Part shown: positions 50,740 to 58,747 of the stretch, piece by piece
How the letters are laid out: each line of letters begins with the position of its first letter
Position numbering within the stretch: position 1 is the stretch's first letter
NCBI GenBank assembly: GCA_963741985.1
Contig: CAVUKD010000001.1
Span: 42,916 to 106,915, forward strand
DNA from: an uncultured Cryomorphaceae bacterium
GTDB lineage: Bacteria; Bacteroidota; Bacteroidia; Flavobacteriales_D; Cryomorphaceae
Length of the DNA stretch: 64,000 bases
Direction: 5' to 3'
Notes under the pieces: model-generated
What the model saw: only the letters and a program-made list of their open reading frames with translations
What the model was told of the DNA's origin: nothing
Databases searched by the model: none
Made by a program: the position numbers and the translations under genes

Positions 50740-51327
50740 TCACTCCCCCAACCCTTTTCCGTTCAAAATATCCGGGATACTTTTCTCCACGCGTGAGGTG
50801 CGGGTTTTGGATTGTTTGGCTCCACCAAAATGAAGCAGGTATCCCCGCTTGCGTCCCGGAGTGAGTTCTTCGAAGGCTTTCTTGAGAATTGGCATCTCAT
50901 CAAGTTTTTCCTGAAACTCTTCTGGAATTTCATATTCGGAAGTCTTTTTCAAGTCAACTTTCAGTCCCGCTTTTTCTACTTCCACAGCTTCATATATGTA
51001 GGCTTTTAGTTTCGGTTTTAGATTCATTATTTCGCTTACTTCCGTAAAACGAATCTGGCGTGCAGATTGCACATTTTTGGTTTGCTGGATGAGCAGATCG
51101 TCGGTATCTTTTAACAATACCCCTTTGTGAAAAAGAATGGCGCAATATTCCTTGAATGCGTGGATTAGTAGAATATTGGAGTCGTGCCAGGTGTAACAAG
51201 GAACTCCCCATTTCAATTCTTCGGTTAGCCCGCAGTCGAGAATTATACTTCGTAATTTCTCCAATTCTTCCTGCCATTTTTTTGCTTTCGCAAAAAAGAA
51301 ATCAACTTTTGGATTCGCACCTTTCAT
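50740..51327 (-). CDS. YdeI/OmpD-associated family protein (DUF1801 + OmdA domains)
   Basis: EELKWGVPCY, LFHKGVLL, QSARQIRF, FEELTPGRKRGY and AKQSKTR.SRVEK. Confidence 0.88.
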   Translation of the reverse strand: MKGANPKVDFFFAKAKKWQEELEKLRSIILDCGLTEELKWGVPCYTWHDSNILLIHAFKEYCAILFHKGVLLKDTDDLLIQQTKNVQSARQIRFTEVSEIMNLKPKLKAYIYEAVEVEKAGLKVDLKKTSEYEIPEEFQEKLDEMPILKKAFEELTPGRKRGYLLHFGGAKQSKTRTSRVEKSIPDILNGKGLGE

Positions 51328-51485: not shown

Positions 51486-52421
51486 TCATCTCATCCACCT
51501 CTTTATTTCCCTTTTCGACATCTCCTGCGTAATAATCGAATCGGGTTGCACTCCGGTGTACATATTGCCTTGCTTCAATTGTTGGTTTTGCTGCTCCTTG
51601 GTACAAAAAACCAAAGGCACGCAGGCCATTTTCGCATTTAAGTCCAAACCATTCCTTGATTTTGTCTGTTCTGCATCATTGTAATAGACTATAAAGCGAA
51701 CGTGAAGGCCGGTAGTGTAATTGGCTCCGCCGGCAATGGCTATTGGATCGGAAGCTTCGACCTCCTGCCCGAGATGAACCAATGATTCGCTTAACACCTG
51801 ATATCTTGCAAAGGAGCAGTCTTGCTGGAATATTTCGATATAATTATCCTCGCTCGAATACACGTAACCGGAATACGCCAAACTCGAAGTGTCACGAACT
51901 CCACAAACCACACCCCGTCGGGCTGCAAATATAGTGTCGCCTTCCTCCATCTTAAATCCCACGGCGTAATAATCCTTCGGCTCAGGCGATCTATTGCTGA
52001 TTTTCAAATAATCTATGGGAAAGGTTTCTGTTATTCTGTCCTTGCCCACGGGCAGTAAATAATTGAAATTCATATCGATTTCGGGATCCATACAACCGGT
52101 GATATAGGCAATACTATATTGAAAACTGGAAGTCTGACTTGGATCGCCGGCCTCCAACGTAAAAAGATAGTTATTGCCGTGATGCACTTCGGTAAGGAAA
52201 GGTAATTGTATGCGCCACTTAAGGTTTTTTAATTCTTGAAAATTTACTTCAAGTGTATAGGTACAATAATTCTCGTTTTCACAATAAAATTTGTAATTAC
52301 CTCTACTATCCGCGTCGTACCTAACCGTGATGCCATCCTGGGCACAAGCGTTTTGGTACATTCCTTGAAAGATGAAGAGAAGAAAAAAATATTTTAGCTG
52401 GCTATGCTTATAAAATTCCAT
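51486..52421 (-). CDS. Exported M23/LytM-fold protein with degenerate zinc-binding motifs
   Basis: GDTIFAARRGVV, NYIEI.Q.D.SFARY..L....V..GQ.V....IA..G and GLHVRF match the LytM scaffold, but HxxxD and HxH are not intact. Confidence 0.65.
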   Translation of the reverse strand: MEFYKHSQLKYFFLLFIFQGMYQNACAQDGITVRYDADSRGNYKFYCENENYCTYTLEVNFQELKNLKWRIQLPFLTEVHHGNNYLFTLEAGDPSQTSSFQYSIAYITGCMDPEIDMNFNYLLPVGKDRITETFPIDYLKISNRSPEPKDYYAVGFKMEEGDTIFAARRGVVCGVRDTSSLAYSGYVYSSEDNYIEIFQQDCSFARYQVLSESLVHLGQEVEASDPIAIAGGANYTTGLHVRFIVYYNDAEQTKSRNGLDLNAKMACVPLVFCTKEQQNQQLKQGNMYTGVQPDSIITQEMSKREIKRWMR

Positions 52422-52717: not shown

Positions 52718-53470
52718 TCAATTAATCAGAAAACCAAGCATAACCCCCAAACGATGTAAATCGGCCGAACCGGTGAAGCTGGTCCCACCTTCGAAAAGAC
52801 TAAATCCATACCCATATTCAGCTCCATCGAGATGCACATAGCGATAGGTGAGATTTAATTGAAATGCAAAATGGAGATTGTTATAGACGACAAGTCCTAT
52901 CCGGCCACCTAAAAAAGATCCTTTGTCGTAATTGTAGTTGTAGTACCAATTGTCAACATTGGTAGTGGATAGTGGTATCATGAAACCACCATTTACGCCC
53001 ACTATCGGACTGAATCGCTTATTTAGAATCTGGTAACTATAGTCGGCGTAAATGGGGATATACCAATTACCGGCGTATTTTTCCATGCCCAAACCGATTC
53101 CGGGATGATGGCCATTTATCTTGTACCCATTTATCATATCATAGGCAAATGTTGGTTGCAGATCGCCGTATTCGCTTCTGCCAAACTGGGGTCCGACCAA
53201 TGAATTGTGGAAATATCCTTTTGATTTTATCTCAAAATCCTTTTTAATGACTTCATTATCGGCTATGTTCATGCTACTAATGTTAGCGGCAATTACGGTA
53301 AGTATCCTTCCGTCTAAGAGTTTGATCGTGGCGTGATCTTCAGGAATATATTCCGTAACATTTCCCTTGTAAAAGGAACCGTCTTTCAGACTTATAATAT
53401 CGTACACTTCTTGCGCCCGCAGTGAAATAGTGCCAATACATAGCAGAACGAATGTGAATACGTGTTTCAT
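52718..53470 (-). CDS. Outer-membrane beta-barrel protein with small N-terminal beta domain
   Basis: Signal peptide ending RAQ; DIISLKDGS.YKG.V.E N-domain; amphipathic strands ending LGVMLGFLIN; starts immediately after the LVIVD gene stop. Confidence 0.65.
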   Translation of the reverse strand: MKHVFTFVLLCIGTISLRAQEVYDIISLKDGSFYKGNVTEYIPEDHATIKLLDGRILTVIAANISSMNIADNEVIKKDFEIKSKGYFHNSLVGPQFGRSEYGDLQPTFAYDMINGYKINGHHPGIGLGMEKYAGNWYIPIYADYSYQILNKRFSPIVGVNGGFMIPLSTTNVDNWYYNYNYDKGSFLGGRIGLVVYNNLHFAFQLNLTYRYVHLDGAEYGYGFSLFEGGTSFTGSADLHRLGVMLGFLIN

Positions 53471-54748
53471 TTAATGGGCAGGAATTAAACTGAGTTCTGA
53501 AATAGCATTGGGGTCGGAATAATCATATTGATAAATCCCCTCTTTAGCCGACATAATCAATACATGATTAAACGGAATGACATCGTACGTCTCAATATTT
53601 TGATAATGCGAAATCAGATGGTCGGTAATAGTCAAATCGTTCTCCGCATCAAAGACTTTCAGACCATCGGTACCGTCGCAAATAAATAAAGTATTGCCAT
53701 CGATGCCAATACCGTGTGGATTGGTCAGGTCGTATTGGGCAAGTTGAGTTGGCGCAGTGTAATCGGTAATATCTATAACCAAAAGCCCGTTGGTAAAGCC
53801 GCCACATCCGGTACCCGTACGAATAGTAGCGTAAGCCCGATTGCCTTGCACCGCCACGGGGTCACAAGAAGTGATATGCGATATCTGACTTACATATTCG
53901 GGTGCAGCAGGATTATTCAAATTATAAATAATCATCCCTGAAGAAGTACCGAGAAAAAGGTGGTTGTTGTAAGGAAAAATGGTTTCGGCGTTCCAACCTA
54001 CATTTGTCACCGAGCTCTGCTGTGGACAATTATTTCCCGAAAGGTCAAAGGAAGTAATGGATGACGGGCGAAGTACATAGAGATAATCGCCTGAAACCGT
54101 AAATTGCGCCATGCTGCCGCCCATTCCGTTTCCGGAAATATTGCCGACGGCGGTTCCAATTTCATTTAATCCTCCATTACTCCAAGCAATATCCTCGTAC
54201 ATATAACTCTGATAAGGTTGTGCATCGCGTGATATTTCTTGTTGCGTCCAACCTGTGATCACCCCTTTTGCAGGATCGATTCCGATAAAGGGCAGGCTTT
54301 CATCGTACCCTTTGACCATCGTCCAATTAGAGAAATCGAATGCATTAGGCACCCGGCACGATAAGGCAGGATGGGCGGGATCGCTGATATCAAAAGCCAG
54401 CAAATCATAATACGCATCGGCATAAAGTATATGGTTACGCACCGCAAGGTCCACGCAACCGGCTATGGAGAGAAAGGCCATATTCTGGGGTGATGATGGA
54501 TTGGCATTGTCGAAGATATGAATGCCTTCGCCTCTTTCTACAATGAAGAGATAATTCTGATAGATGTAAATCTTACCGGGCTCCCTTAGGTCGCGCGGAG
54601 TCTCGGCGGCAATATCCATGGCTCTCCAGGTTTCGAGCGACATATATTCTGGTACGTTGGCTTGGTAGGTTTCGGTGTATTTGTCAGTACAGCTCTGTAA
54701 AGAGCCAAGAATTAGGACAATCAAAAAGGTTAACGATAGGTTTTTCAT
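53471..54748 (-). CDS. LVIVD-repeat (beta-propeller) lipoprotein
   Basis: Lipobox LQSC; repeated G.HIFD..NP.SP, LLAFDISDPAHP, IYNLNNPAAP and VIDITD..P units; start reassigned to ATG 54748. Confidence 0.82.
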   Translation of the reverse strand: MKNLSLTFLIVLILGSLQSCTDKYTETYQANVPEYMSLETWRAMDIAAETPRDLREPGKIYIYQNYLFIVERGEGIHIFDNANPSSPQNMAFLSIAGCVDLAVRNHILYADAYYDLLAFDISDPAHPALSCRVPNAFDFSNWTMVKGYDESLPFIGIDPAKGVITGWTQQEISRDAQPYQSYMYEDIAWSNGGLNEIGTAVGNISGNGMGGSMAQFTVSGDYLYVLRPSSITSFDLSGNNCPQQSSVTNVGWNAETIFPYNNHLFLGTSSGMIIYNLNNPAAPEYVSQISHITSCDPVAVQGNRAYATIRTGTGCGGFTNGLLVIDITDYTAPTQLAQYDLTNPHGIGIDGNTLFICDGTDGLKVFDAENDLTITDHLISHYQNIETYDVIPFNHVLIMSAKEGIYQYDYSDPNAISELSLIPAH

Positions 54749-54774
54749 GGGTTGGGATGTTCGTTTGGTTTTAA

Positions 54775-54804
54775 GATGCATTTGAATAGAAAATGGTTGC
54801 ACGG
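54775..54804 (-). promoter_or_regulatory. Putative ECF sigma promoter (CCGTGCAACC-N15-GCATC) upstream of the LVIVD lipoprotein
   Basis: Minus strand reads ccgtgcaacc attttctattcaaat gcatc; same motif and spacing as upstream of the sigma gene. Confidence 0.65.
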
Positions 54805-54859
54805 CGTTCGATACTGACGCTGCGGTTAGCTTTAAAAATGCACTCACTAATTTTTTCTG

Positions 54860-54954
54860 CACGGTGAACACAGAGCGGTGTTTGACTAAAGGGTCAGAAT
54901 ATGTTTTTTGAGTTTTATTCTTTTCTCCGTAAATTTTTCTTTGTGACCTCTGTG
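54860..54954. repeat. Degenerate REP-like inverted repeat (CACRGWG.. units)
   Basis: Left arm CACGGTGAACACAGAG (54860-54875) matches the reverse complement of the right arm CTTTGTGACCTCTGTG (54939-54954) at 11 of 16 positions; a small internal hairpin lies between them. Confidence 0.45.
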
Positions 54955-54994
54955 TGAAGAGGTAGGCCCGTTCATTAACAGTAATCATAAACTC

Positions 54995-56431
54995 TTAAAA
55001 AGAGACCACAGCTCCAAATCGCAATCCGGGCCAGAGATTTTGTTGAGAGTAGAAGTTGGGATTGCTGGTGTAATAATACCGCAGGAGCGATCCTTCGGCG
55101 TAAAGTCCAAAATGCTTGGTAAATTTAAAAGTCATTCCTAGGCCGGTATAGATATTGGCCTGGTTGCCTTGTTCATTTTTATTGCTGGTATCAGTCCCTG
55201 TCAATTCTCCGTTCAGAAATGTTTTGGAAGTGGTTTGCTGCCAGATTTGAATATCGTATGCATTGCCCAGAGTGGTATATGCGGAGAATTTTGGTTTATG
55301 GATAAAATCAAATTTGAGATAGGCGGGTATGGACAAATACCGATTCTGTGACTCGATCTCTAAACTTTGTTGACCTCCATAGGTGTACTCTGAGGATTTC
55401 CGCATCTGCAGATATCCCAGCCCCGTGCCAACGGCGAGGCGTTGTAAAAATTCAATTTCTCCATTTACTCCGTAATAAACGGGTGTGGAATAGGTCACGG
55501 ATTCAGATAAAGCGGCAAATTCATTACTTACGCCGATTCCGACTGCTGTTCCGTCCGCATATGCAGAATAATCTGCATTGGTTTGATCGGTACTTCCGCC
55601 AAATGCCAGTTGAGAACCTGCCAGGATAGAATATTCGTTGGATGCCCGTTTTTCTGTACCGTCATAAAATGGAGAACTCTTCACCTTCTTGTCTGTAACT
55701 TCACTTTTTGCAAAAGAAACGGTTCTCACCTGTCCCACCAAAACGGCTTCCGCCAAATCTATCTGGATATCGGAATCAATTATGGAAATGGCTTGTGCCT
55801 CTAACAGCTCACTTTCTAGTGGAACCAATTGAGGATTCAGGAATGCAGTGGAATTATTCAATGGATGAGCTTCTTTCTTAACGCTTCGCAAATCTGCGAG
55901 AATTTGATCTTCTTTGCCATCCATTGGCATGGATGCCGATTTAAAAGCACTTTCACTCGAAAGTTCACTATTTTCCGTTTGGGGTGTCGTTTCCGCAAAA
56001 GCTGAATTAGAAGGTTTCTCACTTGGTTTTGACTCATTAGGTGTCGCCGTTGGAGTTCGTGTTTTTGCAGGTGTATTGGATTCTTTTTGGTTTTCGGTTT
56101 TCACTTGTTTTTCGGCAAGGGATTTATCCACAGTGGTTCCAGGATATTTTACGTAAGTGAAAACAGCCAGAAGGAGAATGGAAGCAGCGGCACCAATCCA
56201 CCACCAGGCCGCGGTGCGCCTACCCGAAGAAGGACGTAATACCGCATCGATACGATGCCACACATCCTTAGAAGGCTGTACCGCATAAGATGCAAACTTT
56301 CCACTCAGCAATCCCTTTGCATTTCCGTAAGGAATACCCGCAGAAATAGCCTCCCAATTGGAATCATCTACAGGGTAGGTATAGTTTTCGAACTTCCTGT
56401 TCAAGTCATTATTTTCAGATTGCCTGTTCAC
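54995..56431 (-). CDS. Putative anti-sigma factor fused through a TM helix and linker to an outer-membrane beta-barrel
   Basis: N-terminal K-F..Y...P....W..I motif twice; TM AAWWWIGAAASILLLAVF; S/T/E/P/K-rich linker; barrel strands ending LRFGAVVSF; GTG start at 56431 overlaps the sigma gene end. Confidence 0.7.
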   Translation of the reverse strand: MNRQSENNDLNRKFENYTYPVDDSNWEAISAGIPYGNAKGLLSGKFASYAVQPSKDVWHRIDAVLRPSSGRRTAAWWWIGAAASILLLAVFTYVKYPGTTVDKSLAEKQVKTENQKESNTPAKTRTPTATPNESKPSEKPSNSAFAETTPQTENSELSSESAFKSASMPMDGKEDQILADLRSVKKEAHPLNNSTAFLNPQLVPLESELLEAQAISIIDSDIQIDLAEAVLVGQVRTVSFAKSEVTDKKVKSSPFYDGTEKRASNEYSILAGSQLAFGGSTDQTNADYSAYADGTAVGIGVSNEFAALSESVTYSTPVYYGVNGEIEFLQRLAVGTGLGYLQMRKSSEYTYGGQQSLEIESQNRYLSIPAYLKFDFIHKPKFSAYTTLGNAYDIQIWQQTTSKTFLNGELTGTDTSNKNEQGNQANIYTGLGMTFKFTKHFGLYAEGSLLRYYYTSNPNFYSQQNLWPGLRFGAVVSF

Positions 56432-56963
56432 TTCTTTTTTTTTCGTTTTCAATCATTTCCCGCAACATAGCTTTGCTTCGACTGTATTGAGATTTACTTG
56501 TTCCTTCGTTGATGCCCAGTTGCTTTGCAATTTCGTGGTGTTTGTATCCTTCAATTGCGTAGAGGTTAAAAACGGTTCTAAATCCCATCGGCAGATTCTG
56601 TATTTTCTCCATCAGTTCATCTGCACTCATACTGCTCAGCACATCATCACTTACTTCTCTCAGATGCAGGTCGCTATTTTCAACACGCACCAGTTGCACG
56701 TTTTTATTTTCGCGAAAGCGTTGCAGAGCCACATTAATCATTATCCGCCGTATCCATCCGCCCAAAGGTCCCGATCCGGAATATGAATCGAGGTGATTGT
56801 AGACACGGATAAAGCCTTCCTGGAGAACATCTTCAGCGTCGGCAACGCAGGAACAATAACGCATGCACACACCCATCATCTGCGGAGAATGCAGTTGATA
56901 CAGTTTTTTCTGTGCACGGTAATCACCGCTTAAACACGCTTTCACCAGCGTTTTTTCATCCAT
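56415..56963 (-). CDS. ECF-type RNA polymerase sigma-70 factor
   Basis: DAEDVLQEGFI, WIRRIMIN, LP.GFRTVFNLYAIEGY.H.EIA..LGI.EGTSKSQYSR. Confidence 0.93.
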   Translation of the reverse strand: MDEKTLVKACLSGDYRAQKKLYQLHSPQMMGVCMRYCSCVADAEDVLQEGFIRVYNHLDSYSGSGPLGGWIRRIMINVALQRFRENKNVQLVRVENSDLHLREVSDDVLSSMSADELMEKIQNLPMGFRTVFNLYAIEGYKHHEIAKQLGINEGTSKSQYSRSKAMLREMIENEKKRSEQAI

Positions 56964-57010
56964 TGGTTTTTCTGAGGCCTTCAGTTGGTTTTTTATTCCA
57001 CTAAGGTAGT

Positions 57011-57040
57011 GATGCCGATTGGATCAAAAGGGTTGCACGG
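57011..57040 (-). promoter_or_regulatory. Putative autoregulatory ECF sigma promoter (CCGTGCAACC-N15-GCATC)
   Basis: Minus strand reads ccgtgcaacc cttttgatccaatcg gcatc, ending 47 nt before the sigma ATG. Confidence 0.65.
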
Positions 57041-57073: not shown

Positions 57074-58747
57074 TTAACCGAGTTTCAACATCTCATTTGC
57101 CCTCGAAATCGATTCCTGAATATCATCACAAAGATTTGCCTTTTCGAGCACCGAATAAATATCGACCCTTTCAAGATCTGCACGAACTTTTGGATTCAAT
57201 CCCGAAAGCACGATACCCACTTTTTGATGCTTGTATTGCCTGATCATTTCTTTGAGCCGGTATATTCCGGTCGCATCGATGAAGGGTACATTCCGCATTC
57301 TCAATATCATCACTTTTGGATTTTTTTGTACGCTGTTAATTGTGTCTTGAAAAGTTTGAGCAGCACCAAAAAACAAGGCTCCGCTTATTTCAAACATGGC
57401 AATATCCGGATCCATTTTTGGCAATTCATCTTCAAATAAGGTCTCGGAATTTTCATTCTTATCGAAGAAAAGATTTTCACCGGTCTCAATGCGCATCGAA
57501 TTGCTCATACGTCTCATTAATAAAAAGCTGGACAATACAATTCCGATTTCAATAGCGATTACCAAATCAAAAACAACGGTAAGAAAAAAGGTAACCAACA
57601 AGATGAGAATATCTGATTTATCTCCTTTGAGCAGCGATTTGAATTGCCTCCATTCGCTCATGTGATACGCTATTACGACCAGAATACCTGATAGACAAGC
57701 CATTGGTATAAGTTTGGCCAAGGGTGCAAGCAGCAACATAATTAGCAGGAGAACCAGCGCATGAACGATACCTGCGATAGGTGTGCGCCCACCGTTTTTG
57801 ACATTGGTTGCGGTACGCGCAATGGCTCCTGTGGCCGGGATTCCGCCGAACATAGCCGAAAAGCAATTGGCTGTGCCCTGTGCAACGAGTTCGGCATTAG
57901 AGCGATGTCGTCCGCCCATCATTCCATCCGCTACTACCGCAGAAAGGAGCGACTCAATACCTCCGAGAAGTGCAATGGCAAAAGCCGGGCCTATCAACTC
58001 TTTTACGATTTTGAAATCGATGTGCGGAATAGAGGGCATCGAAAGATGATTTGGAATATCTCCAAAAGAAGTTTCGATGGTCGTGACGGGAAGCTTAAAC
58101 CAGTATACAACCAGCGTACAAACCAGAATGGCCACGATTGATCCGGGCACCTTTGCGGTAATTCTCTGAAACTGGAAGGAAATAAGCACGGTGAAAGCTG
58201 CAATCGCAACTGCTATCCAGTTTATATGTTCGAAGTGCAGGACGTATAATTGCCACTTTTCTATGAAGTCTGCAGGAACAGCGTCGATGGGTAGCCCGAA
58301 GAAATCTTTTATCTGAGAAGAAAAGATAATAACGGCAATACCACTAGTGAAGCCCACTATCAGTGGATAAGGAATGTATTTCAAAAGTGTACCCAGCCGC
58401 GCTATTCCCATCGCGATCAGGATAAAACCCGCCATAAATGTGGCAATGGTCAGCCCGTTTACTCCGTGCTTTTGCACGATGGCATAAACGATGACAATGA
58501 AAGCTCCGGTAGGGCCGCCAATCTGAACCCGGCTGCCTCCCAATACCGATATTACCAGACCTGCGACTATTGCGGTAATAAGACCTTTATCCGGTGAGAC
58601 TCCAGATGCTATGGCAAACGCAATGGCGAGTGGAAGTGCAACGATCCCCACGATTACACCAGCTGTTAAATCTTTGAGGACTTGTTCTTTGGTTATTCCG
58701 GCTTTTAAAAGCGAGAATAATTTGGGAGTGAAATCGTGATTTTTCAT
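57074..58747 (-). CDS. SulP/SLC26 family anion transporter with STAS domain
   Basis: DLTAG.IVGIVALPLAIAFAIASG, GGPTGAF, ESLLSAVVAD, ATGAIART and C-terminal LFFGAA...LRMRNVPFIDATG. Confidence 0.93.
   Translation of the reverse strand: MKNHDFTPKLFSLLKAGITKEQVLKDLTAGVIVGIVALPLAIAFAIASGVSPDKGLITAIVAGLVISVLGGSRVQIGGPTGAFIVIVYAIVQKHGVNGLTIATFMAGFILIAMGIARLGTLLKYIPYPLIVGFTSGIAVIIFSSQIKDFFGLPIDAVPADFIEKWQLYVLHFEHINWIAVAIAAFTVLISFQFQRITAKVPGSIVAILVCTLVVYWFKLPVTTIETSFGDIPNHLSMPSIPHIDFKIVKELIGPAFAIALLGGIESLLSAVVADGMMGGRHRSNAELVAQGTANCFSAMFGGIPATGAIARTATNVKNGGRTPIAGIVHALVLLLIMLLLAPLAKLIPMACLSGILVVIAYHMSEWRQFKSLLKGDKSDILILLVTFFLTVVFDLVIAIEIGIVLSSFLLMRRMSNSMRIETGENLFFDKNENSETLFEDELPKMDPDIAMFEISGALFFGAAQTFQDTINSVQKNPKVMILRMRNVPFIDATGIYRLKEMIRQYKHQKVGIVLSGLNPKVRADLERVDIYSVLEKANLCDDIQESISRANEMLKLG

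Follow-up and report, generated by a model that had tools for sequence, protein, structure and literature searches.

Does the extracytoplasmic function (ECF) sigma factor encoded in this stretch of Cryomorphaceae DNA transcribe its own operon and, from a matching promoter, the adjacent operon for an LVIVD-repeat lipoprotein and a small outer-membrane (OM) barrel, and does its regulon extend beyond these genes? The stretch analyzed here (the window) comprises 64,000 nucleotides from the genome of an uncultured Cryomorphaceae bacterium (G000:C1:42916-106915; genome of 4.63 Mb in 5 contigs, 99.6% complete), and the four genes in question, encoding the sigma factor, an anti-sigma/barrel protein, the LVIVD lipoprotein, and the barrel, share the minus strand across positions 52718-57040. 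Our analyses make it highly probable that they belong to an ECF module of the Das/Dma type, in which the sigma factor (sigma A) reads promoters of one form (type A, TGCAACC-N15-GCATC) before its own operon, the LVIVD-barrel operon, and a few unlinked genes. The features of the module are the following.

56415-56963, minus strand: ECF sigma factor (sigma A), 182 aa (Pfam, TIGR02937).
54995-56431, minus strand: Dma-type anti-sigma/barrel protein, 478 aa (AlphaFold2 [AF2] model, Foldseek, homologs; matches record P0005).
53471-54748, minus strand: LVIVD-repeat beta-propeller lipoprotein, 425 aa (PF08309, lipobox).
52718-53470, minus strand: predicted small OM barrel, 250 aa (AF2 model, Foldseek).
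57011-57040, minus strand: putative type A promoter of the sigma/anti-sigma operon (motif, conservation, matrix built from relatives only).
54775-54804, minus strand: putative type A promoter of the LVIVD-barrel operon (motif, conservation, matrix built from relatives only).

The anti-sigma gene starts with GTG and overlaps the sigma stop by 17 nt. The ATG of the barrel gene directly follows the TAA of the LVIVD gene, and the barrel therefore appears to be translationally coupled to LVIVD. An earlier note on this DNA had described this one-strand gene order, with the barrel starting immediately after the lipoprotein stop, and the coordinates bear out both points. It had also placed CCGTGCAACC-N15-GCATC at 57011-57040 and 54775-54804, with equal 15-nt spacers that carry TTTT at positions 2-5; both 30-nt sites, and their spacers, are exactly as it described them. 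On the minus strand, the site before the sigma gene (57040-57011) reads CCGTGCAACC + CTTTTGATCCAATCG + GCATC, with its -35 element TGCAACC at 57037-57031, a spacer starting CTTTT, and its -10 element GCATC at 57015-57011, from which a transcription start site about 6-8 nt downstream and a leader of about 40 nt are predicted. The site before LVIVD (54804-54775) reads CCGTGCAACC + ATTTTCTATTCAAAT + GCATC, with TGCAACC at 54801-54795, a spacer starting ATTTT, GCATC at 54779-54775, and the start codon 26 nt downstream. The Bacteroidota housekeeping -7 box, TAnnTTTG, was absent upstream of both sigma and LVIVD in the window.

A scan of the genome and of orthologous loci for the core motif, which the earlier note had proposed as a check, returned four exact copies in G000 and found the motif conserved before sigma and LVIVD in relatives. 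For the 12 bases of TGCAACC-N15-GCATC, about 0.34 copies would be expected from the base composition of the genome; genome-wide, the reversed pattern occurred once, and each of the other spacings from 5 to 30 yielded zero to two copies. All four exact copies were located 19-47 nt upstream of a gene-opening ATG, as were only one or two of the 22 one-mismatch matches, where genic context was judged by the distance to the next gene start and frames stay open upstream of true starts. Moreover, a weight matrix built from nine sites in relatives only and then scanned over G000 ranked the two window sites first and second genome-wide, with 35 bits for the sigma site and 32 bits for the LVIVD site, followed by matches at 24.7, 23.9, and 23.6 bits and then a gap to 17.5. 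Chance is excluded as the source of the motif. The 23.9-bit match, at C2:663324, has a poor -35 element (GCGCAAT) and was set aside as a probable false positive, a judgment made without its coding context. Within the window, a weak third resemblance, CCGTGCAG...GCATT at 54834-54866 (minus strand), lies 30 nt upstream of the LVIVD promoter and shares the heptamer CCGTGCA; it may be a decayed copy of the motif, and was rejected as a third site because its spacing is wrong.

Sigma A orthologs with 74-77% identity were found in five relatives from the same genus or family (G001, G002, G003, G005, and G017). The same four-gene order was present in G001, G002, G003, and G005, and the contig of G017 ends inside the anti-sigma gene. 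TGCAACC-N15-GCATC or a one-base variant preceded the sigma gene in all five and the LVIVD gene in the four with the complete module, the variants including GTATC as the -10 element of the LVIVD site in G003 and ACATC in place of GCATC in the sigma A promoter of G001. Across the 11 sites in six genomes, TGCAACC was kept in 11/11 and GCATC was exact in 9/11. Mean pairwise identity was 1.00 in the -35 block, 0.93 in the -10 block, and 0.82 at spacer positions 1-4, and dropped to 0.42 at spacer positions 5-15 and 0.34-0.43 in the flanks. To judge from these alignments, conserved blocks amid a diverged spacer and diverged flanks are the footprint expected of a bipartite promoter, with (A/C)TTT at spacer positions 1-4 giving what appears to be an extended -35 element.

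Two peculiarities of the relatives were observed alongside. The sigma A ortholog of G001 reads in two frames (L068:1340-1440, G001:C2), a break that the loss of a single base from a short C run would produce; this could reflect a real pseudogene or an assembly error in this two-contig genome. In G002, degenerate 10-11-nt repeats with AAATCATAAATCTGAAATCA-like units fill the intergenic stretch that separates the anti-sigma gene from the LVIVD promoter (L065:4660-4850); such repeats are absent from the window.

Sigma A contains only sigma regions 2 and 4 (Pfam Sigma70_r2, 61 bits; Sigma70_r4_2, 42.8 bits) and scores 88.5 bits against TIGR02937 (sigma70-ECF; cut-off 42.9), and the 182-aa protein belongs to the ECF (group 4) sigma-70 factors; its scores against two NCBIfam models that bear on the ECF21 group, 74 for TIGR02985 (cut-off 126.4) and 73 for NF058625 (cut-off 130), were both below cut-off. 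The 478-aa protein was modeled with AF2 on the basis of 21 homologs. Its N-terminus consists of short helices bearing a duplicated (F/Y)..P...W..I motif, and these cytoplasmic helices are conserved. They are followed by a transmembrane helix at residues 73-93, over the hydrophobic AAWWWIGAAASILLLAVFTYV, and by a linker of about 170 aa (residues 94-266) without secondary structure (predicted local distance difference test [pLDDT] below ~35), which is of low complexity and poorly conserved in the 21 homologs. The C-terminal barrel was modeled with a pLDDT of 74-88 per 10-residue block over residues 310-450 and 470-478, and of 53-62 over 451-470, and matched OmpA, OprF, Ail, and OmpW in Foldseek (E 2e-7 to 1e-4). 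Homologs carry PF13568 (OMP_b-brl_2), are named 'PorT family', and retain a C-terminal Phe; in the window protein itself the barrel falls below Pfam reporting. This arrangement suggests a chain that spans both membranes.

Of the two downstream products, the LVIVD lipoprotein has a signal peptide, a lipobox (LGSLQSC, ending at Cys20), and a PF08309 match of 47.7 bits (cut-off 20.2). The 250-aa protein had no Pfam match and is predicted to be an 8-stranded OM barrel of the OmpX/OmpW/NspA-like kind: its AF2 model (mean pLDDT 83.7) shows a signal peptide followed by a small beta domain of ~45 aa at the N-terminus and then eight long strands at 85-249, and Foldseek matched it to NspA (E 1.6e-5, target template modeling [TM] score 0.75), OmpW (target TM score 0.59-0.62), OmpX, and OmpA. 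By analogy, the module may serve in envelope sensing and the LVIVD lipoprotein may be exposed at the cell surface.

We then turned to the motif copies outside the window. The third exact copy lies before an unlinked 230-aa lipoprotein of no known family (C1:526794-527483), and the fourth before an unlinked gene for a cargo protein of the type IX secretion system (T9SS; Por_Secre_tail; C4:324289-325056). On C3, near 287460, a copy with one mismatch stands before a second T9SS cargo gene. The lipoprotein carries SKDDD after its lipobox cysteine, which may resemble a surface-export signal, and its ortholog in G002 (73% identical) keeps both hexamers and differs in the spacer. At the C3 cargo gene (G000:C3:287460-287500; L043:7961-8001), the segment from the promoter through the leader to the first codons can be aligned with its counterpart at LVIVD (window 54748-54804), with 27/30 identical promoter positions, a 14-nt insertion in the leader, and unrelated sequence upstream of the -35 element, and this site therefore looks like a copied promoter segment. 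The regulon thus probably exceeds two genes and includes the unlinked 230-aa lipoprotein and one or two T9SS cargo genes. A further site, C3:517131 (TGCAACCATTTG...GCAAC), 68 nt before the gene for a 115-aa membrane protein, is an unconfirmed candidate. The earlier note had anticipated that the motif could be used to find more of the regulon, as indeed it was. Its title had spoken of a two-gene regulon, which is not upheld, and of the self-contained circuit that it proposed, the local logic from sigma to LVIVD stands and the self-containment does not, unlinked genes also carrying the motif. Its central idea, an autoregulated ECF sigma factor whose promoter form also drives the LVIVD-barrel operon, is strongly supported by the comparative evidence.

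Further evidence on which sigma factor reads the motif came from a paralog, sigma B, which is about 42% identical to sigma A and was found in relatives together with a motif of its own (type B, GTAACC-N14/15-GCACT). In the sigma B module (G003:C1:214112-216232; G010:C61:5459-8280, L109/L114; G001:C2:1388725-1391550, L108), sigma B is followed by an anti-sigma of Dma-like type and then by a lipoprotein about 220 aa long, which is distantly paralogous to the 230-aa lipoprotein of G000 (28% identity across 93 aa). No match to sigma B or to its partners was obtained in G000, and they were not found in G002, G005, or G017. GTAACC-N15-GCACT was located before sigma B in G003 and G010, and before the downstream lipoprotein of the sigma B module in G010 and G001. 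The same form was also present, at the same position, before orthologs of the 230-aa lipoprotein in G001, G003, and G010, and before orthologs of the cargo gene in G001 and G003. By genome, the sigma factors and the motifs at their targets were distributed as follows.

G000, G002, G005: sigma A present, sigma B not found; type A or A-like motif at LVIVD, the 230-aa lipoprotein, and the cargo gene.
G001, G003: both sigma factors present; LVIVD preceded by type A, the lipoprotein and the cargo gene each by type B.
G004, G007, G009, G011, G013, G016: sigma A not found, sigma B present; type B at the cargo gene.
G010: sigma A not found, sigma B present; the lipoprotein has type B and the cargo gene a third motif (CAACGA...CGTCT).
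G014: sigma A not found, sigma B present; third motif at the cargo gene.

With few exceptions, the motif type at the targets matches the sigma paralog found in the genome. In this comparison and in that of distant loci below, the start codons of some relatives were picked by eye among in-frame ATGs. The most telling case of the motif following the retained sigma factor is G009, where sigma A was not found and the LVIVD-barrel pair (61% and 56% identity) has no adjacent sigma or anti-sigma gene: its orthologous LVIVD promoter reads CACCGTGTAACC-N15-GCACT, that is, TGTAACC-N15-GCACT. As a comparison of sequences, this co-variation is the best available evidence that the type A motif belongs to sigma A, and it suggests that -35 position 3 and the last two -10 bases are the specificity bases that separate sigma A from sigma B.

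To account for this pattern, we lean narrowly towards a scenario in which the Cryomorphaceae possess two sister Dma-type ECF systems that draw on a shared pool of envelope genes, and in which the loss of one system is followed by a hand-over of the pool through point changes at orthologous promoters. Sigma A would use TGCAACC-N15-GCATC and sigma B TGTAACC-N14/15-GCACT, motifs that differ by about three bases; the pool would consist of the LVIVD-barrel operon, the 230-aa lipoprotein, and the T9SS cargo gene; and in the window genome sigma A would have inherited the whole regulon. Such a regulon can also grow when a promoter is copied together with its leader, for which the C3 cargo gene would be an example.

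Beyond the close relatives, we considered a distant set of 40 loci with LVIVD homologs (30-44% identity) from several classes of Bacteroidota. A strict scan of these loci for the exact motif found it in only two Tannerella metagenome-assembled genomes, and direct reading of the upstream regions exposed related ECF-type motifs with other -10 elements. In Niastella, a sigma gene (50% identical), a 582-aa anti-sigma with a PF13568 barrel, LVIVD, and the barrel are arranged as in the window, and sigma and LVIVD are each preceded by GCAACG-N17-TGTCA. In Saprospiraceae, LVIVD and the barrel come first, then sigma and a large membrane protein, and a single cAACC-N16-CGTCT precedes LVIVD. The form cAAC(C/G)-N16-(T/C)GTC precedes LVIVD in Emticicia, Chryseolinea, Cyclobacteriaceae, and Saprospira, reading cAAC(C/G)-N16-TGTCA in the first three, and the Tannerella form is TGCAACG-N14-GCATC. 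Flavobacterium LVIVD genes were without an ECF motif and had a TAnnTTTG box. Counted by hand, the distance from AAC to TC is equal in the sites of the window, Niastella, Emticicia, and Saprospira, and only the two bases before TC vary. From these related motifs and their equal spacing, LVIVD therefore appears to be a recurrent target of this ECF lineage, and in many lineages it has an ECF promoter with no sigma gene within 5 kb. Its partner recurs as well: a signal-peptide protein of about 200-255 aa starts at most 20 nt after the LVIVD stop in most of 37 distant loci, and an iterated profile placed the window barrel family directly downstream of LVIVD in 18/37 of these and in three close relatives. 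The pairing of LVIVD with an 8-stranded-barrel gene is, on present sequence evidence, widespread in Bacteroidota and usually seems to have an ECF-type promoter.

Sigma factors of this kind have long-standing models in RpoE/RseA of Escherichia coli and SigW/RsiW of Bacillus subtilis, in which the promoter of the sigma/anti-sigma operon depends on the sigma factor and has AAC in its -35 element and TC at the end of a short -10 element, and the sigma factor is released by destruction of an anti-sigma that ends in the periplasm. The window module resembles them in its predicted sigma/anti-sigma operon, in the AAC of its putative -35 element, and in a putative -10 element whose last bases are TC, and differs in that its sensor is predicted to lie in the OM, on the same chain, and in that the -10 element has CATC rather than CGTC.

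Closer still are Das1/Dma1 of Bacteroides thetaiotaomicron, the founding Dma system, and its ortholog Reo/EcfO of B. fragilis and Phocaeicola vulgatus (PMC10927553, PMC13088901, PMC13114119). Dma-type anti-sigma factors were described in 2024, only in gut Bacteroides, and the class is restricted to Bacteroidota (PMC10927553). The fusion of anti-sigma and barrel in the window is thus no oddity; it belongs to this described class and has the architecture of Dma1 (PMC10927553). As in Das1/Dma1 and EcfO/Reo, the ECF sigma gene is followed by an overlapping anti-sigma gene, whose product, likened here by architecture, begins with a short cytoplasmic N-terminus and a single transmembrane helix and continues through a long disordered linker into a C-terminal OM barrel of the OMP_b-brl_2 type. 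The predicted regulon is likewise small, comprising the module's own operon, a downstream lipoprotein gene, and unlinked lipoprotein genes; in the Dma/Reo systems, loss of the anti-sigma induces the sigma operon, the gene or genes immediately downstream, and a few unlinked lipoprotein genes (PMC10927553, PMC13088901, PMC13114119). Unlike the Das1/Dma1 output in Bacteroides, which is NigD, the predicted outputs here are an LVIVD propeller lipoprotein with an 8-stranded barrel, the 230-aa lipoprotein, and T9SS cargo. NigD itself was rejected as an output of the module, given that no PF12667 match was found in the 99.6%-complete G000 and the B. thetaiotaomicron control was positive. There is a likeness, too, to Das2/Dma2 of B. 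thetaiotaomicron, where deletion of the anti-sigma mainly induces the downstream BT_1555-1557 of the same operon and the sigma gene; unlike in the window, these downstream genes encode DUF4858, DUF4943, and a reductase-like protein, and Dma2 is there reported only in the genus Bacteroides (PMC13088901). The word 'promoter' is absent from the Dma1 paper (PMC10927553), and no promoter motif was found in the available parts of the Dma2 paper (PMC13088901). A literature search for LVIVD together with 'sigma factor' returned no paper, and a search for LVIVD alone returned only the 2004 description of the repeat and unrelated uses of the term.

With these precedents in view, we propose the following mechanism. 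The cytoplasmic end of the Dma-type anti-sigma would keep sigma A at the inner membrane, and the anti-sigma itself would run as a single chain from the cytoplasm through the periplasm to a small OM barrel. Damage to the OM, or a signal there, would remove the anti-sigma, presumably by proteolysis, in analogy to Dma1 and Reo, proteolytic inactivation having been proposed in Bacteroides. Freed sigma A would direct RNA polymerase to promoters of the form TGCAACC-(A/C)TTT-N11-GCATC, transcribing its own operon from 57011-57040, LVIVD and the coupled barrel from 54775-54804, and the unlinked 230-aa lipoprotein and T9SS cargo genes. With the sigma/anti-sigma operon under a sigma A promoter, positive feedback would therefore arise. 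That sigma A itself reads the type A motif is what we infer from the comparisons above; the inducing signal, by analogy, and the functions of the output proteins are presumptive.

A genuine ECF-type promoter could instead be read by another ECF sigma factor, in which case the site before the sigma gene would mark a cascade and not autoregulation. Other ECF sigma factors are present in G000, because it holds 18 sigma-like first-look candidates, three of them at E ≤ 1e-30; one paralog has a similar -35 element, with GCAACC-N15-CGTCT before C2:2033720; and cross-talk between Dma systems has been suggested for B. thetaiotaomicron (PMC13088901). We nevertheless regard a different reader as unlikely: the motif type tracks the presence and absence of sigma A and sigma B across genomes, the -10 element co-varies with the linked sigma factor in Niastella and Saprospiraceae, and the two closest sigma paralogs in G000 (C4:549039 and C2:2033720) were rejected as alternative readers because neither has a type A motif upstream. 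There is very little to recommend the proposal that the LVIVD site is unused, with LVIVD and the barrel transcribed by read-through from the sigma promoter and the second motif a relic of local duplication. The four genes do share one strand, the terminator scan found no convincing intrinsic terminator between the anti-sigma gene and LVIVD, and the C3 site shows that promoter segments do get copied, yet both hexamers and their exact distance have been kept in five genomes amid a diverged spacer and flanks, which would not be so in a relic. Moreover, in G009 neither a sigma nor an anti-sigma gene accompanies the LVIVD operon, which is nonetheless preceded by a matching ECF-type promoter, and in many lineages LVIVD has an ECF promoter and lacks a sigma gene within 5 kb. 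It is harder still to believe that the bipartite motif is no promoter at all, being bound instead by a regulator such as a repressor or activator or having recurred by chance. Promoter function is deduced here from sequence, and CCGTGCAG...GCATT is a case of motif pieces turning up at the wrong distance from each other; against this, the motif lacks symmetry, is specific to one strand, and keeps a fixed distance to start codons, it has the form AAC ... N ... TC of ECF promoters, no other promoter is visible in either upstream region, and the genome-wide copy number, the distances to gene starts, and the matrix ranks point the same way.

The assignment to sigma A must itself be weighed against several observations, to which the 18 sigma-like candidates also belong. 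The motif is attributed to sigma A by adjacency and co-variation only, and few evolutionary events may underlie the pattern of sigma factors and motifs because related genomes are not independent. Some genomes depart from that pattern: G017 (assembly 89% complete) has hybrid motifs, G006 (assembly 87% complete) combines an A-like motif with no sigma A found, and G010 and G014 carry the third motif type at the cargo gene. CATC in the -10 element departs from the usual ECF CGTC, and Pfam recognizes no anti-sigma domain in the N-terminal region of the anti-sigma. The unlinked targets are less secure than the window sites: the lack of TTT in its spacer leaves the C4 site with only 14.9 bits in the matrix built from relatives, and the C3 target has no ortholog in five relatives.

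The type of switch described here is already known; what is new is an explicit promoter with likely specificity bases, the extension of the regulon, and the pattern of hand-over between sigma A and sigma B. The locus offers a precise, testable promoter for a Dma-type system in a free-living marine or polar relative, and may tie an uncharacterized pair, the LVIVD lipoprotein and its small barrel, to an OM stress circuit across several classes of Bacteroidota. In addition, the comparison of the sister sigma factors suggests how a regulon survives the loss of its regulator, and the specificity bases bear on ECF orthogonality, a topic in synthetic biology.

The surroundings of the module were also inspected. 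Directly upstream lies a SulP/STAS anion transporter gene (window 57074-58747, minus strand), whose stop is 33 nt before 57040, and downstream are genes for an M23 peptidase-domain protein (51486-52421, minus strand) and a DUF1801/OmdA protein (50740-51327, minus strand); the type A motif was absent at all three neighbors. Just past the anti-sigma stop, an inverted repeat, CCTCT-tcacac-AGAGG (54943-54966, minus strand), has no T run and was not called by the terminator scan; it might act as a weak terminator, or mark a site of processing between the two operons. Elsewhere in G000, the cargo gene on C4 is the last of three tandem T9SS cargo paralogs (G000:C4:322432-325056, L042; 36-46% identical), and the type A promoter is present only at this last one. 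Finally, at G000:C3:69424-73137, the 26-nt string TGCAACGGAATTCTCTGATGCGGCAT occurs seven times on one strand, mostly 738 nt apart, which points to a large gene built from ~246-aa repeats.

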